Shown one piece after another: positions 1,120 to 30,520 of a stretch of 30,520 nt of DNA. Source of the DNA: a virus. Position 1 is the stretch's first letter. Each line of letters starts with the position of its first letter. The position numbers and the translations under genes were made by a program. The stretch is taken from positions 1 to 30,520 of IMG/VR virus record IMGVR_UViG_3300014208_000021, one strand, 5' to 3'. The notes under the pieces were generated by a model. That model searched no databases and was not told where the DNA came from. It was given only the letters and a program-made list of their open reading frames with translations.

Positions 1120-3445
1120 GAGTAGAGAATTAAAAATTTTATTATCGGCAAGGGATGAGCTTTCAAAGGCTCTTTTTACGATTGACAAAGAGATGAAAGA
1201 AATCGAGAAGGCTACGAAGTCGGCAGGCGGAGCCGCTGGGGATGCCGGGTCTTCTTTTGGTGATATGTTCAAGGGGATGCTTACCGCCTCAATGGTAAAA
1301 GATGCAATTTATGCAGTAAGAGATGCGGTAAAAGCTTTTATTTCGGAATCAATCGCGGCGGCGGCGGCAAACGAAAGAATGGATACGACTTTTGGAATTT
1401 TAATAGGAGACGGAGAGAAAACAAAGGAATTGCTTATGGAGCTTGATTCATTAAAGATGACGGCTCCTTTCCCCTCGGATAGCATCGAAAACTCTGCTAA
1501 TGCACTTCTAGCCATGGGCGTGGCTTCCGATGAAGTTGCTTCTACGATCTCAATGCTTGGAGATGTTGCCGCAGGAACAAACGCCGAGCTTGATTCTGTC
1601 ACTTCTGCTTTTGCGCGCATATCTGAGGCCGGTGAATTAACCGGAGCCGCATTAAAAACTTTGACATTAAATAATATCCCACTTCTCTCTTTATTGGCCG
1701 ATTATTTTGGGACTACGAGGGAGGCAGTTGAAAAGATGGCCGATTCCGGGAAAATCACATCGGATGTTGTAACTCAAGCTTTTAGGGCGATGACGAGCGA
1801 GGGAGGAAAATTCGAGGGTGCAATGGAAAAACAAGCCGCTAATCTCGACGGCTCTTTCATCACTTTTCATAATACTGTCGAACTTTTATCCGAAAAAGTA
1901 GGCGGTACTTTATCACCAGCAATGAAGGTTTTGTCAGAAGAATTTTCGACCACTGCGAGTAAGGTTAGTGATCTTCTTGTCACAACCGACGGAGAAATGA
2001 CACCGGCGGCGAAAGAACTTGCTGATGCCTTTACAAATGTCGCATCGATTTTTGGTTCACTTGCTACTCCTGCAATCATGTTTATGGCGAGTAAATTTTT
2101 AATTTTAGCATCGGCAATAAATGATGTAGTGGGTGCGGCAAAAAGTGCGGAGTATTGGATTGGAAGACTTAGCGGGATTAGTCAACTCAAGGATGCACTC
2201 TCTGGCCCGAATCAGTTGCGAGGGAGTTTCTCTGATCTTGGAGACACTATTCACGAAACATTTTCTACACTTAATGGCTCGACGACTGACGGGAAAACTG
2301 GAATGGATGGGCTTAGTGCTTCGACTGAAAACTGGGGAGGGTCAATGAGCAGTGCCTCATCTTCCGCGAGTGATGCCTCGAAAGAGATTGAAAAGATAAA
2401 AAAAGCAGTCGAAAACTTAACAGGAGCCTATGAAAGTTTCCAAAGTGATGCGACCGATGCAATCGAAAACGTAGCGGATAAAACTCGTGATGCAGTAAAG
2501 GAACTCGATGACGCAATAACCGGTATTTATACGAGCATGGAAGAAGCAACCCGAGATTATTTGACTTCTCAATCGGAAGGGAACGCAGATATTGCGACAT
2601 CCTACGTTGACCAAGAAGAAAAAGTAAAAGACTTACAAAATACACTTGGAGATTTAAGGACTGAATATAAAAAATTACTCGATGAGGCTCAAAAGCAACT
2701 TTTCTCGGAGGGAATCACAAACATAAGCCTTAGAACGGTGAATGTTGGAGAAGGAGAAACTGTAAGCGATTCCAAAATTCAAGAATTACAACAATGGGCA
2801 ACCATGACCGGCTCTTCCGAACTTCAAAATTATATCGATAAAATTAAAGACCTAAATGAGACAATAAGCGAGACTCAGCTCGACCTTACACCAGAGCAGG
2901 CCGCGCTTGAGGATTTTGCGATTCGAGCCATGGAATTAGACCAAGAAATTGCGGACGCGCGCGACTTCAATAACATGACTGATTTTGAACAATCGGTCTC
3001 CTTAATCGATGATAAAATGTCCGATGAGGAAATAGCGTATCAAGAAAAGATGACAATGTTGGCCGATGAACTTTTAGCAACAGAAACTCAGAAAGCTCAA
3101 ATGATATCTCTTGAGACAAACACTTATGCGGCGATTTTAGCTTTAAGAAATCAAGCGGCCATAATTTATCAAGGAATTATGAATAATATGGCAAACACAA
3201 CAGAGATAGAAGTCAATAGAATGATCGAATCATTAAAAAAACTTCAAGAGGCCGCAGGAATGACCGGAGGTGAAACATACACGGAGGCGGCAAGCGCAAT
3301 CACAGGCTCATCAACTACTACCTCAAATAATGTAACAATCAATGTTTCTGATCTCCCAGCAGGAGCAAGCGCCTCTGAGATCGCAGAGATTTTACAGGAA
3401 AAACTTTTACGTTCAGTTCAACTCGAAACTTTATCCTCACAATAA
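1112..3445 (+). CDS. Tail tape measure protein
   Basis: 777 aa, Ala/Gly/Ser-rich N-terminal half and coiled-coil C-terminal half. It contains a TP901-type core-like segment (MTAPFPSDSIENSANALLAMGV...GDVAAGT). It is positioned after G/GT. Confidence 0.88.
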   Translation: MPESRELKILLSARDELSKALFTIDKEMKEIEKATKSAGGAAGDAGSSFGDMFKGMLTASMVKDAIYAVRDAVKAFISESIAAAAANERMDTTFGILIGDGEKTKELLMELDSLKMTAPFPSDSIENSANALLAMGVASDEVASTISMLGDVAAGTNAELDSVTSAFARISEAGELTGAALKTLTLNNIPLLSLLADYFGTTREAVEKMADSGKITSDVVTQAFRAMTSEGGKFEGAMEKQAANLDGSFITFHNTVELLSEKVGGTLSPAMKVLSEEFSTTASKVSDLLVTTDGEMTPAAKELADAFTNVASIFGSLATPAIMFMASKFLILASAINDVVGAAKSAEYWIGRLSGISQLKDALSGPNQLRGSFSDLGDTIHETFSTLNGSTTDGKTGMDGLSASTENWGGSMSSASSSASDASKEIEKIKKAVENLTGAYESFQSDATDAIENVADKTRDAVKELDDAITGIYTSMEEATRDYLTSQSEGNADIATSYVDQEEKVKDLQNTLGDLRTEYKKLLDEAQKQLFSEGITNISLRTVNVGEGETVSDSKIQELQQWATMTGSSELQNYIDKIKDLNETISETQLDLTPEQAALEDFAIRAMELDQEIADARDFNNMTDFEQSVSLIDDKMSDEEIAYQEKMTMLADELLATETQKAQMISLETNTYAAILALRNQAAIIYQGIMNNMANTTEIEVNRMIESLKKLQEAAGMTGGETYTEAASAITGSSTTTSNNVTINVSDLPAGASASEIAEILQEKLLRSVQLETLSSQ

Positions 3446-4296: not shown

Positions 4297-6036
4297 ATGG
4301 TCAACCTAAAATGCTTTGCGGTAAAAGACAATGCCAGCGCTCAACTTGGAGCCTCATTAAGCTCCTCGGCTCTTTCACTTTCCTTGCAAAGTGGTGATGG
4401 GTCAAAATTCCCGACTACAATTTCGGGAAGTGCTACATCATCTGGGACATCGAGCATCTTAAATTCAACAGGAATAGGTGCGAGCGGTGTTGTGGCCGGT
4501 GATGCAATTCATAACATAACCGATAATTCTTGGGCTGTAATTAAAACCGTATCAACCGATAGCATTATAACTACGCCTCTTCAGGGTGGAACTGGGAATA
4601 CTTGGGACAGCGCGGACACTTGGGCCATAAATTCTTTTGTGATAACTATGGTCCAATATAATACCGTAAATAGTCCTTCAACCGGGGTAAATAAAAGAGA
4701 GAAAATTTTAATCGACACGCGTTCTGGTGATACTTTAACCGTAAACTCAAATGGGAGAGGATACGATGGAGATACAGCGCAATCATTCAATGCACAGGAC
4801 AACTGTTATCTTTTTGTAAAACAAGTTGATTTTAATGGCCTAGTGGAAGGAATCAAGGACCTCCTAGACAGAACAGATGACCTTGAAACGGAAGTGTTGC
4901 GGAAAGACGGGAGCACTCCACTCGAAAACAACACTAATTTTACGGCACGAAATAATGCTGACTCTGCGAATGTAGATCTTTTCAAATTGACGACAGGGGA
5001 CATCGCTGAGTTTCAGACGTTGTTTAGAAATATCGCATCGCGCGTGATCGCAAATGATTACGATATTATCGACAAAAAATACTTTGATGACCATCTTCAA
5101 GAAGAGGCTCAGACAAGTTTTATTACATACACTCTTGGTGAAAATATTACGATCACAAGTGTTCCTGTTGCCATGCAGATTTCGGATGGTAGATATGGAA
5201 CAGCGGGACGCGTTTATTACTCTGACCCATCTAATTTTCAAAATGATCGAGCGAAATTCGATGGGTTTTTAAAAGCGTCAGGAACCGCGGGCAACCCTGT
5301 TGATATTTATAATGGTGTTGTTGATGGGTTTACTGGATTAAGTCAGGGAAAATATTATTGGCAACAGGATTCTTCTATTGGTGGGATTGCTTTAACACCG
5401 GGGAGAATACCTATTTGTGTTGGAAAGGCTATTTCTACAACGGAAATTGATACTAGGCTCCAACCGAACAAAGATTATTTTGATAATCTTTTACCGTATG
5501 CAACGTATTGTCAGGTAGACCTTGATGTCGAAAACTTTGATGTTTCTCGTGGTGGCACATTCACTTCAATCCGTGCATTCTGTAGTGCAGGAGATAGTTT
5601 CCTCCATCATATTGGAGCGGCTGGATTTATTGATATGTCTTATAGATTTAAAGTTTCCACGGTAGCGGCGGATTCTGATTGTTATTTCGGGACAGTAGAA
5701 AGTGGAACACCCGCCGAACCTAGCGGGCACACATACACGGAACCGCATTGCATGTTTTTGATTGATGGTGGAGTCTTGTACGCCTCTCAAGCTAATGGGA
5801 CGACACAGACGTGCTCTGCGGCTATTACTGGTATCACTTTAACGAACTTCAATAAATATCGGATTTATTCTGACCCAGTAAACGCGGTGAGTTTCTTTTT
5901 TGTAAATGATAATTTGGTGGCTACGTTAACAACGAATTGGGCATCGAATGGATTCGTCTATTTTTACATGGGGTCCCACTCCAATACCACATTATATGTT
6001 CATAACGACATCAAATTTTATGGGCCTTCTTTATAA
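4297..6036 (+). CDS. Tail fibre / receptor-binding protein
   Basis: The N-terminal pattern (...LSLQSGDGSKFP...REKILIDTRSGDTLTV..NGRGYDGDTAQSF) resembles the conserved fibre N-terminus '..FP....EI..v....gdt.tv.RG..GT.A'. The C-terminus is beta-rich and jelly-roll-like. Confidence 0.5.
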   Translation: MVNLKCFAVKDNASAQLGASLSSSALSLSLQSGDGSKFPTTISGSATSSGTSSILNSTGIGASGVVAGDAIHNITDNSWAVIKTVSTDSIITTPLQGGTGNTWDSADTWAINSFVITMVQYNTVNSPSTGVNKREKILIDTRSGDTLTVNSNGRGYDGDTAQSFNAQDNCYLFVKQVDFNGLVEGIKDLLDRTDDLETEVLRKDGSTPLENNTNFTARNNADSANVDLFKLTTGDIAEFQTLFRNIASRVIANDYDIIDKKYFDDHLQEEAQTSFITYTLGENITITSVPVAMQISDGRYGTAGRVYYSDPSNFQNDRAKFDGFLKASGTAGNPVDIYNGVVDGFTGLSQGKYYWQQDSSIGGIALTPGRIPICVGKAISTTEIDTRLQPNKDYFDNLLPYATYCQVDLDVENFDVSRGGTFTSIRAFCSAGDSFLHHIGAAGFIDMSYRFKVSTVAADSDCYFGTVESGTPAEPSGHTYTEPHCMFLIDGGVLYASQANGTTQTCSAAITGITLTNFNKYRIYSDPVNAVSFFFVNDNLVATLTTNWASNGFVYFYMGSHSNTTLYVHNDIKFYGPSL

Positions 6037-13446: not shown

Positions 13447-13560
13447 AACAACGGTGGTGCGCGGACGTGTTGGAAAGGCTTTTTTTGTGCCTAACTTAGC
13501 CATCCCGCGTTAAATGACTTGAAGCCAACAATAGACGAGTCAGCCACCCAATTTTATTAT

Positions 13561-13678
13561 GCCACGGATGGCGGAATGCAAAGACGCTCAGCTCCTCGGA
13601 TTTATAGCCCGTATACCGCAAGTGCAAGGAGTGAAAAATATAATACATGCAGGTTCAAATCCTGCTCCGTGGCACCCA
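13561..13678 (+). ncRNA. tRNA-like structured RNA with a non-canonical core (not a standard tRNA)
   Basis: GCCACGGA (13561-13568) pairs perfectly with TCCGTGGC (13666-13673). The T-arm GCAGG-TTCAAAT-CCTGC (13649-13665) abuts the 3' strand. The 3' tail is A-CCCA. It lies in a 257-nt gap whose only ORF (13519-13761) looks spurious. Confidence 0.55.
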
Positions 13679-13703
13679 GTTTAAATCTTTTTAACCTAAT
13701 CTT

Positions 13704-13943
13704 ATGGATGAATTTTTTTCAACACAAGATATTTGTATGGCATCGACTCTCGTTTGTTTAGGCCATAAAATCGAGACGATTGATAAATCTAGACCAAAAT
13801 CAATTCATTTTCTCTTTTTGAATACAGGGAACGTGAGATCTGATGTGGTGAGATTTTGGGATGGTTTAGTACGAATTGAGCCAAAAGAATTTTGGAGTAC
13901 ATTTAGAAATATCAAAGGTCGTATAATGTCAAACTATGAATAA
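13704..13943 (+). CDS. Small protein resembling the DUF5659 family
   Basis: FSTQDICMASTLVCLGHKIETID...IHFLF......VVRFWDG...IEPKEFWSTFRNIKGRI matches my recollection of that family's pattern. The match is weak. Confidence 0.4.
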   Translation: MDEFFSTQDICMASTLVCLGHKIETIDKSRPKSIHFLFLNTGNVRSDVVRFWDGLVRIEPKEFWSTFRNIKGRIMSNYE

Positions 13944-29756: not shown

Positions 29757-30520
29757 ATGCCCAACTTTATTGGAAGAAAACGCAAAATCGGTATTGGAAA
29801 AGAGACAACCGCAGGTACAGCGGTTGCCGCAACAGACTGGATGCCTTTAACAAAGCCGGGTTTCAAGCCCGTCTCTGAAAAAGCCGTTGATTCTAGCGCG
29901 TATGGAAACATTGATGAAATTTACTCGAAAGAAACTACAAAAAATATGACCGAGGTTTCAGTCGAAGGAATTGTTAGGGATGGTTGGTCTGGGCTTTTGC
30001 TCCTCGCTTCACTAGGTAGTGAATCGCTTTGTGTTTATGGGATACTTTCAACCGTGACTGGGACGTTTGTGGTAGGGGAAACCGTTACCGGCGGAACCTC
30101 AGGCGCAACGGGGACAGTAAAGAGGCTTGAAGGAACAACCATTATGTATATTACGGTTTTGACTAGTACATTTACGAGTGGAGAGACGATCACTGGTGGC
30201 ACATCATCGGCGACTGCTACTTTAACCTATGACACAACGGCGCGCGCACATATCTTTGAGAGGTTAAATACGAACGCACATCCAACTTTCACCTTAGTGA
30301 AATCTGATGACGTTGACACTCAAAATTCTTCTTATTGTATGCTCGATAAAATTGATCTTGAAACTGCTGTCGGAGACTTTTCTAAATTCGTCGCAGTATT
30401 TAAGGGAAAACAGATGACTACAACCACGGCGACATCATCCTACGTCGCGGCGAACGCATTTTTAGCAAAATATGCAAAACTTTATTTTGCAGATACGGTT
30501 GCACTACTTAGCGCCGCTTC
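29757..30520 (+). CDS. Major tail (tube) protein, 5' part. The full gene is join(29757..30397,1..523), 387 aa.
   Basis: ATG at 29757 is the first start after an in-frame TAA. I translated it by hand and found no stop up to the window end. It is in the same frame as track ORF 17-523 once the repeat is collapsed. It sits between the tail-terminator-like gene and the G/GT chaperones. It is absent from the ORF track because it is open-ended. Confidence 0.8.
   Translation, partial: MPNFIGRKRKIGIGKETTAGTAVAATDWMPLTKPGFKPVSEKAVDSSAYGNIDEIYSKETTKNMTEVSVEGIVRDGWSGLLLLASLGSESLCVYGILSTVTGTFVVGETVTGGTSGATGTVKRLEGTTIMYITVLTSTFTSGETITGGTSSATATLTYDTTARAHIFERLNTNAHPTFTLVKSDDVDTQNSSYCMLDKIDLETAVGDFSKFVAVFKGKQMTTTTATSSYVAANAFLAKYAKLYFADTVALLSAA
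30398..30520. repeat. Terminal direct repeat, copy 2 (identical to 1-123)
   Basis: Same comparison. This is either the overlap of a circular assembly or genuine terminal redundancy. Confidence 0.97.

Follow-up and report, generated by a model that had tools for sequence, protein, structure and literature searches.

A putative non-decoding RNA gene with a tRNA-Leu-type frame and a hypervariable insert in a siphovirus genome and across a wider set of viral loci

The closest characterized analogues of the element described here are the stable RNAs species 1 and 2 of phage T4 (rnaC and rnaD), phage-encoded, non-decoding small RNAs of 119–139 nt for which we know of no established function. We analyzed a 30,520-nt stretch of viral DNA, IMG/VR record IMGVR_UViG_3300014208_000021 over its full length (hereafter, the window), which carries at positions 13561–13676 an element that resembles a transfer RNA (tRNA) but contains no anticodon arm. 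In T4 rnaC, as in this element, a canonical T arm (CCGGGTTCGAATCCCGG) lies beside a 3′ strand that pairs with the 5′ end, with long hairpins between. The T4 RNAs differ in that they have no tRNA-Leu D arm and no evident sequence relation to the element (the sequences were compared by reading alone), are located inside a tRNA gene cluster, and are not known as a family with swappable inserts; the rnaC acceptor is also imperfect. Our analysis indicates that the window element is very probably a real, selected member of a family of phage tRNA-like RNAs. The defining property of this family, which the initial annotation of the locus missed, is a near-invariant frame surrounding a hypervariable insert.

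Several other described RNAs share part of this architecture. In transfer-messenger RNA (tmRNA), the acceptor and T arm likewise enclose a large pseudoknotted non-tRNA domain, the D-loop analogue lacks the G18G19 interaction, and no anticodon is present. The element, however, is much smaller, retains a true D stem, has C:G at position 3:70 rather than G3:U70, includes no tag open reading frame (ORF), and gives no tmRNA match in ARAGORN or Rfam; moreover, several family-carrying phages also encode a separate, bona fide tmRNA. YrlA is a non-coding RNA of approximately 100–120 nt with tRNA-like D and T arms that occurs in some phages, but its ends form a Ro-binding stem and its tRNA-like part is internal, whereas the termini of the element form an acceptor helix. 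Neither YrlA/Y RNA nor tRNA-Sec produced an Rfam match in the window, even at E values up to 10. Finally, the engineered tRNA scaffold for recombinant RNA, reportedly the work of Ponchon and Dardel, together with mascRNA and the MHV68 tRNA-miRNA units, shows a tRNA body whose anticodon arm is swapped for an arbitrary structured RNA and which is processed, and thereby stabilized, by host tRNA enzymes. These systems are artificial or eukaryotic, while here the D loop is remodeled, the variable arm is lost, and processing is only predicted. Tested for membership, the element falls outside tRNA, tRNA-Sec, tmRNA, YrlA, intron-containing tRNA, and attP, and agrees in every test with the family branch described below that lacks the D-loop GG (GG-less). 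This family is a tRNA-like non-coding RNA that is absent from Rfam 15 and that was not found described in literature searches aimed at such a family.

The acceptor helix is formed on the plus strand by GCCACGGA (13561–13568) and its exact complement TCCGTGGC (13666–13673); with A13674 and C13675–C13676, the 3′ strand extends over 13666–13676. A canonical T arm (13649–13665, plus strand; stem GCAGG/CCTGC, loop TTCAAAT) lies immediately 5′ of the acceptor 3′ strand, and A13674 followed by CCCA lies 3′ of the helix. Under an 8-bp reading, A13674 is a discriminator-like A that precedes CC. Between the D arm and the T arm, the sequence contains no 5-bp stem with a 7-nt loop, nor is there a YU-NNN-R loop on either side of the long arm; all helices of the element are perfect. 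The perfect 8-bp helix, canonical T arm, and missing anticodon arm reported in the initial annotation are therefore borne out. To gauge chance, we ran 2000 first-order Markov simulations of the window (both strands) and counted TTCRANY T arms with an immediate, perfect Watson-Crick acceptor strand whose partner lies 35–140 nt upstream. The expectation per window was 0.002 for 8 bp and 0.0165 for 7 bp, and exactly one case was observed, at 13561–13673.

Downstream of the acceptor 5′ strand, the sequence reads TG-GCG-GAATGCAAAGA-CGC, that is, U8, G9, D stem, and D loop in a class-II layout (13569–13587, plus strand). The D stem comprises 3 bp, GCG (13571–13573) with CGC (13585–13587), and G13570·U13588 is optional. 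In the 11-nt loop, GAATGCAAAGA, GCAA stands where UGGU is usual, so that G18G19 are missing. The absence of GG had been recognized before and proves to be a family trait rather than decay; the 4-bp stem GGCG/CGCT proposed with it is replaced by the 3-bp class-II stem. A 61-nt insert (13588–13648, plus strand) takes the place of the anticodon and variable arms. Its predicted fold is an arm closed by 6 bp, GCTCCT (13591–13596) with AGGAGT (13627–13632), or by 8 bp with a bulge, with an apical region of uncertain fold and then an A/U-rich single strand (approximately 13633–13648). The previously noted 45-nt arm is recovered in this prediction, with its closure by CTCCT/AGGAG revised. The 3′-terminal base of the insert, U13648, is equivalent to tRNA position 48. 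Altogether, the parts of the tRNA fold that are kept are the acceptor helix, U8, A14, A15 with U48, the 3-bp D stem, the 5-bp T stem, and the T loop.

Judged by sequence, the 5′ part of the element is the frame of a bacterial class-II tRNA-Leu. The two share U8-G9, the 3-bp D stem, an 11-nt D loop with GAAU...AGA flanks, the 5-bp T stem, TTCRANY, and an A after the 8-bp stem; they differ in the anticodon arm, the variable-arm hairpin, and G18G19, none of which the element has. A GG-containing version of the D arm, GGTGGCGGAATTGGTAGACGC, is annotated as tRNA-Leu in many GenBank phages, and JGI metagenomes contain ordinary tRNA-Leu(UAA) genes, GCACGGA-TGGCGGAATTGGTAGACGC-...-TCCGTGT-A, with the same D arm apart from the GG. 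Relative to these metagenomic genes, the window element has an extra C:G acceptor pair, GCAA for TGGT in the D loop, and a different sequence throughout the region between the D and T arms. In addition, locus L046 (viral loci are designated by L numbers) encodes a normal-looking tRNA-Leu(CAA) on the same acceptor frame, which suggests that the elements arose from phage tRNA-Leu genes.

These observations displace the earlier comparison with tRNA-Sec, since the D arm is that of tRNA-Leu. The element shares with tRNA-Sec and allo-tRNAs (8/5, 8/4, 9/3) a possible 8-bp acceptor and a 5-bp T stem, 13 bp in total, but it has no 6-bp D stem with 4-nt loop, UCA anticodon, or variable-arm hairpin of tRNA-Sec. 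G13561 can be read either as position 1 of an 8-bp stem or as a −1 base pairing with C13673, and G13561:C13673 may be the −1:73 pair of a precursor. Complementarity at −1:73 has a frequency of 84% among GG-less elements, 65% among GG-type elements (which keep the GG), and 64% among ordinary tRNAs of related viral loci. The 8-bp acceptor was accordingly rejected as a special family trait, such pairing being comparably common in the ordinary tRNAs.

Two further kinds of tRNA-related gene were observed. Locus L302 contains at approximately 1855–1940 a degenerate tRNA-Leu-like gene whose 5′ strand, GCCACGGA, is identical to that of the window; its anticodon region is shortened, its acceptor is imperfect, and an intrinsic-terminator-like hairpin follows. 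Loci L030, L051, L067, L069, L093, L102, L105, and L108 carry class-II-shaped tRNAs (TCTGGGG...CCCCAGA-G-CCA) with a proper anticodon arm (loop CUGUUUA/CUGUUAA, anticodon GUU) and a variable region of 28–40 nt. They lie 5–9 nt after an ORF of about 290 aa and are missed by ARAGORN at default settings.

The frame is widespread among viral sequences. A structural DNA pattern (GGAAT-N4-AGACRC, 50–80 nt, GGTTCRANYCC) retrieved at least 120 IMG/VR loci, nearly all of which have a 7-bp acceptor strand, a tRNA-Leu D arm, 45–80 nt of unrelated sequence, a T arm, and the complementary acceptor strand. The default mode of ARAGORN recognized 3 of 123 family loci. The GG-less D-arm pattern, GGCGGAATGNAAAGACGC, is found at 49 IMG/VR loci, most with the full frame (more than 40); a typical member reads GAGCGCG-TGGCGGAATGTAAAGACGC-[insert]-GCAGGTTCAAATCCTGC-CGCGCTC-A. 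Inserts in this GG-less group span 23–223 nt and are mutually unalignable, and the 61 nt of the window fall within this range. Across 185,579 reference genomes, the D-arm pattern yielded mostly chance or coding matches, with the frame present in 3 of the 120 among the matches listed; the GG-less 5′ frame had no match in GenBank phages, and the loci of ten GG-less relatives had no Rfam match of any kind. The near-absence from cellular genomes and GenBank phages, together with the lack of Rfam matches, places the GG-less branch as viral, confined to metagenomes, and outside Rfam. BLAST of the window region against GenBank phages returned nothing, or only chance and T-arm matches, the exact 25–26-mer of T arm plus acceptor was absent from the viral and genome collections searched, and BLAST with the spliced frame gave only chance protein-coding matches. 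In the GG-type sister group, only some members score as partial Rfam tRNA matches.

To evaluate selection on the frame, we removed the inserts from 28 distinct frames, aligned them, and counted base pairs. All seven acceptor pairs (7/7) changed on both sides, and two T-stem pairs covary around an invariant AGG/CCT core. Base pairing was found in 99.5% of acceptor cells, a percentage that is partly circular because loci were admitted only if acceptor and T stem paired; when partners were slid by 1–3 columns, pairing fell from 98% of cells to 29–53%. What is not built into the selection is that almost every viral D-arm match has a pairing partner and almost no cellular match does. The T arm, GCAGGTTCAAATCCTGC, is nearly invariant in the GG-less family, and the D arm is invariant at 18 of 19 bases across 26 GG-less frames, the exception being the position that the search pattern did not fix. 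All 38 GG-less members (38/38) have U as the final base of the insert, which fits an A15-U48 tertiary pair; U8 and A14 are kept as well.

The window conforms to this family in each part of its frame. Its D arm, TGGCGGAATGNAAAGACGC, is identical over 19/19 bases to those of L133, L137, L138, and L155, and its T arm, GCAGGTTCAAATCCTGC, matches the family over 17/17 bases, the same 17-mer as in most GG-less members, and is directly followed by the complement of the 7 nt preceding the D arm. The covariance model R1, built without the window, detected 13561–13600 (24.4 bits, E = 3.4e-6) and 13624–13672 (19.8 bits, E = 1.4e-4), a match split in two by the insert. These were the only significant matches in the window, the next having E = 0.23. 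The earlier proposal of a tRNA-like, non-decoding RNA gene is thus upheld, in that dozens of otherwise unrelated viral contigs share the frame and show compensatory changes in it.

Comparison with L044 illustrates how the frame and insert behave separately. Positions 13648–13673 (26 nt) are 100% identical to L044, and L300, L304, and L305 carry an element identical to that of L044. This locus shares the acceptor of the window, including G-1:C73, and the T arm, but its D loop keeps the GG and its 88-nt insert is unrelated, and tblastx detected no protein-level similarity between its genome and the window. On this sequence evidence, we conclude that the frame spreads between unrelated phages while the insert changes. 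As separate observations, the 88-nt insert of the L044 element (element at 5439–5585; also L300, L304, and L305) contains a second T-arm-like hairpin, TGGGGTTCGACTCCCCG, and in L300 HNH endonuclease genes lie on both sides of the element.

As a group, the inserts tend to be structured. Measured against mononucleotide shuffles, 122 inserts have a mean z of approximately −1.1 to −1.2, and 86–89% lie below 0, that is, are more structured than shuffles. In the lineage L024/L035/L038/L043/L070, related to the Bacteroides phage BS-TP2, the insert forms a hairpin-type pseudoknot with double-sided changes in all three helices, as judged from five sequences only and with the structure derived from those same sequences. 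A pseudoknot between the window arm and its A/U tail was rejected (duplex of −2.5 kcal/mol, equaled by 15% of shuffles). Some phages carry two elements with different inserts: L021 contains at 2654–2881 (minus strand) tandem elements, a GG-less element with a 77-nt insert and, about 20 nt later, a GG-type element with a 54-nt insert. L152 and L165 likewise have tandem elements, and L046, L033, L115, and L149 each have two elements with different inserts.

One member of the GG-type sister group resides in a cultured phage. BS-TP2, a temperate Bacteroides phage, contains an unannotated 108-nt element (L294 1495–1602, corresponding to PQ571275 19550–19657) that is identical to the element of L019. 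Its neighbors are a DUF2303/YfdQ gene and NinG, whose start codon follows 12 nt downstream. With the Rfam tRNA model, this element scores 40 bits, but the alignment skips 43 nt at the site of the anticodon arm. The paper describing BS-TP2 does not mention tRNAs; in the set of Chinese gut viromes that it covers, the phage is reported at a prevalence of 33.5% (PMC12694917).

Standard detection fails in the window. ARAGORN in default tRNA and tmRNA modes found 0 genes in the 30.5 kb, and Rfam 15 at gathering thresholds found nothing. With E values allowed up to 10, the Rfam tRNA model (RF00005) aligned the T arm and acceptor and skipped the middle, at 14.9 bits against a gathering score of 29. 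The minimum free energy of the whole element, −36.8 kcal/mol (z = −2.0), is mildly better than that of shuffles.

We propose that the element encodes a non-decoding tRNA-like RNA, about 113–116 nt long, that descends from a class-II tRNA-Leu and combines a tRNA body as scaffold with the insert as effector; we put the probability of this reading at roughly 0.5. The element would be co-transcribed with the co-oriented early and recombination genes around it. RNase P would excise the RNA on the 5′ side, the 3′ end would be trimmed, and the CCA enzyme would repair the encoded A-CC end, leaving a stable RNA that would act in trans. The kept parts of the frame are those recognized by tRNA-processing enzymes. 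The tRNA body would thus provide a handle for processing, stability, and possibly protein recruitment, and the insert arm would bind a factor, of host or phage origin, that would differ from one phage lineage to another. An invariant frame, inserts with compensatory changes, and several cargo variants per phage favor this mechanism, and the lack of a conserved neighbor gene fits a reliance on host tRNA enzymes. The scaffold-plus-effector mechanism specifically, taken on its own, we hold at slightly less than even odds.

Several results weigh against this proposal. The insert of the window (13588–13648) is an orphan, with an 18-mer absent from IMG/VR and no homologue; its fold taken alone has z = −0.78, so that the inner hairpin drawn in the initial annotation is not individually significant. 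Since the element copies on three contigs (ENA, JGI, and Logan) are 100% identical, they carry no covariation information, and the fold of the insert has no covariation support. No antisense target of the insert was found within the window, the longest match of 11 nt being at chance level. The partial circularity of the pairing percentage bears on the frame in the same direction. RNase P and other enzymes contact the D-loop/T-loop elbow, which loss of G18G19 should weaken, and tRNA-type processing may therefore not be efficient. Lastly, the hypervariable insert could merely be tolerated.

The remodeled D loop could itself compensate for the lost elbow contact. The substitution is always GNAA (GUAA, GCAA, GAAA, or GGAA), flanked by U and A; the AA was preset by the search pattern, which leaves only the N as independent evidence. 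The GNAA could fold as a GNRA mini-hairpin and dock on the invariant T-stem GG:CC, thereby replacing the G18G19 contact, an idea based on GNRA-receptor preferences said to have been described by Costa and Michel. A broader and more doubtful extension of the scaffold-plus-effector proposal is that the tRNA-Leu body is a modular phage RNA chassis for interchangeable structured cargo of 23–223 nt, often pseudoknotted, that acts in trans on host factors. Examples of such cargo would be anti-defense RNA effectors (antitoxin mimics, nuclease inhibitors) or codon-independent ribosome ligands.

The two principal rivals of this proposal are a decoy role and a transcript-punctuation role, a decoy and a processing handle both being among the suggestions of the initial annotation. 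In the first, an unlikely alternative, the body itself, rather than the insert, would be active as a tRNA decoy that soaks up or misdirects host factors acting on the acceptor, T, or D regions. Defense nucleases, toxins that modify 3′ ends, leucyl-tRNA synthetase (LeuRS), and sensors of uncharged tRNA are candidates, and the missing anticodon would keep the RNA out of translation. A frame far more conserved than the insert is what a decoy would show, as are a viral family located in early or accessory regions (the window, BS-TP2, and L020) and the lack of a conserved phage partner gene. A decoy leaves unexplained, however, the large structured inserts, with compensatory changes including a pseudoknot in one lineage, and the occurrence of two copies with different inserts in one phage. 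Stoichiometric titration of abundant tRNAs would also need very high expression, and a GG-less D loop that departs from real tRNA-Leu is odd for a mimic.

We consider it rather improbable that the element is cis-acting punctuation, in which an RNase P and 3′-processing site would cut the early transcript and uncouple the downstream gene (13704–13943), with the excised RNA as by-product. Family elements show a gene-like placement that also suits the scaffold-plus-effector proposal: they are co-oriented with their neighbors and tight between ORFs, with quartile distances of 18 nt upstream and 25 nt downstream, so that one quarter of members lie within 25 nt of the next ORF. The next start codon follows 30 nt 3′ of the window element, as compared with 12 nt in BS-TP2 and 15 nt in L020, where the element lies near an exonuclease and a ligase. 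The leaders seemingly have no Shine-Dalgarno sequence, so their 5′ end would matter. Nevertheless, the next ORF lies a median of approximately 100 nt away, many members have no ORF close by, canonical phage tRNA genes are equally tightly packed, and a cleavage site needs no structured, covarying insert.

It is very improbable that the element is an unusual decoding tRNA, whether one from which an anticodon-loop insertion is removed or in which it is tolerated, or a Leu-charged RNA that enters the ribosome codon-free as tmRNA does. In its intron mode, ARAGORN reports a 96-nt "tRNA-Ala(cgc)" with a 20-nt intron in the window, but the anticodon stem of this call is weak (4 bp with a U·U mismatch) and competes with the perfect 6-bp helix. 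Applied to 124 elements, the same mode gave scattered anticodons and positions and found some "anticodon" in almost any member; with no group I intron or other Rfam family detected, the earlier suggestion of an intron-containing tRNA is disfavored, and we know of no bacterial enzyme that removes short tRNA introns. A decoding role would be easier to accept for GG-type relatives: L036 reads CUUAG[21 nt]AA, and in L038, L043, and L070 CUUAGAU immediately precedes the 3′ strand of the stem, so a few of these may be tRNA-Leu genes with anticodon-loop insertions. The normal-looking tRNA-Leu(CAA) of L046 on the same acceptor frame also speaks for decoding, as does the fact that LeuRS does not read the anticodon. 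Escherichia coli LeuRS, on the other hand, needs the G18G19 that the window element lacks, and the absence of a YU-NNN-R loop, of G3:U70, and of a tag reading frame counts against this explanation.

The least credible explanation is dead sequence, namely a decaying tRNA-Leu pseudogene, an attachment-site remnant, or part of ORF 13519–13761 or 13559–13684: the failure of every detector at default settings and the orphan insert would suit it, but the helices are perfect, dozens of unrelated viral contigs preserve the frame through compensatory changes, the scanned ORFs yielded no integrase domain (unlike Rhizobium phage RHEph01, where a tRNA-Leu fragment lies beside an integrase), the 25-nt 3′ part is absent from all 185,579 species genomes, ORF 13519–13761 (80 aa) has no PHROG match and no gene call on the full contig, and insert lengths that differ by non-multiples of three around an invariant frame exclude a conserved reading frame.

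The window represents a complete siphovirus genome, approximately 30.4 kb in size. A 123-bp direct repeat at its ends (1–123 and 30398–30520) identifies it as a circular assembly, and ENA contig k141_1252086 is the same genome rotated, with ends at approximately 13436 and 13484, just upstream of the element. All genes are on one strand. Structural and packaging genes include those for tape measure, Dit, portal, capsid, and terminase. The early/recombination block comprises, in order, a helix-turn-helix regulator, a 251-aa protein, a PD-(D/E)XK exonuclease, two small ORFs, the element, a DUF5659 protein, NinG, and NinB, so that exonuclease/RecT-like and Nin genes adjoin the element. Besides the missing integrase, no RNA-metabolism protein was detected among the window ORFs scanned. 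A Shine-Dalgarno-like motif precedes only 3 of 40 genes, which suggests a Bacteroidota-type host; the leaders are rich in A/T (about 5% G), and TTTAAA stands some 10–15 nt before ATG in many of them. Four window proteins searched in IMG/VR returned no relatives. The 79-aa downstream protein has identical copies only, and the exonuclease has only ~40%-identical matches, on unrelated short contigs without a tRNA-like element. A sigma-70-like promoter candidate, TAGACG-17-TATTAT (13532–13560), is weak (9/12) and extends to the last base upstream of the element; because transcription would then start inside the acceptor strand, it probably does not serve the element. The GC-rich tract at 13451–13475 was not flagged in a terminator scan.

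Across the family, neighboring genes are not conserved, but recombination or replication genes and HNH endonucleases are recurrent themes. In L020, an AAA+ protein of the sigma-54 activator type (GETGTGKE..., recognized by eye) is encoded at 4401–5279 (minus strand), about 0.7 kb upstream of the element. DUF2693-FD RNA (76 bits) or bona fide tmRNAs, including the permuted alpha-type, are located on element-carrying contigs at L024 2697–2745, L036 8577–8929, L018 5468–5866, and L051 5431–5795.

Phage non-coding RNAs are barely charted, and the family described here is invisible in standard annotation, being missed by default ARAGORN and having no Rfam 15 entry, yet it is frequent in IMG/VR. Such genes need masking or annotation; otherwise, they will be mis-called as intron-containing tRNAs or small ORFs. 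Because BS-TP2 is in culture and carries a relative, the family is open to direct experiment in a Bacteroides phage. A decoy role of the frame would point to tRNA-directed defenses in Bacteroidota and other hosts. Effector cargo arms would add a new layer to the conflict between phage and host and would offer tRNA-scaffolded RNA expression a precedent in nature. Should the body prove to be a chassis for interchangeable cargo, its plug-in architecture would be a natural one, and the family would count as a new class among phage non-coding RNAs.

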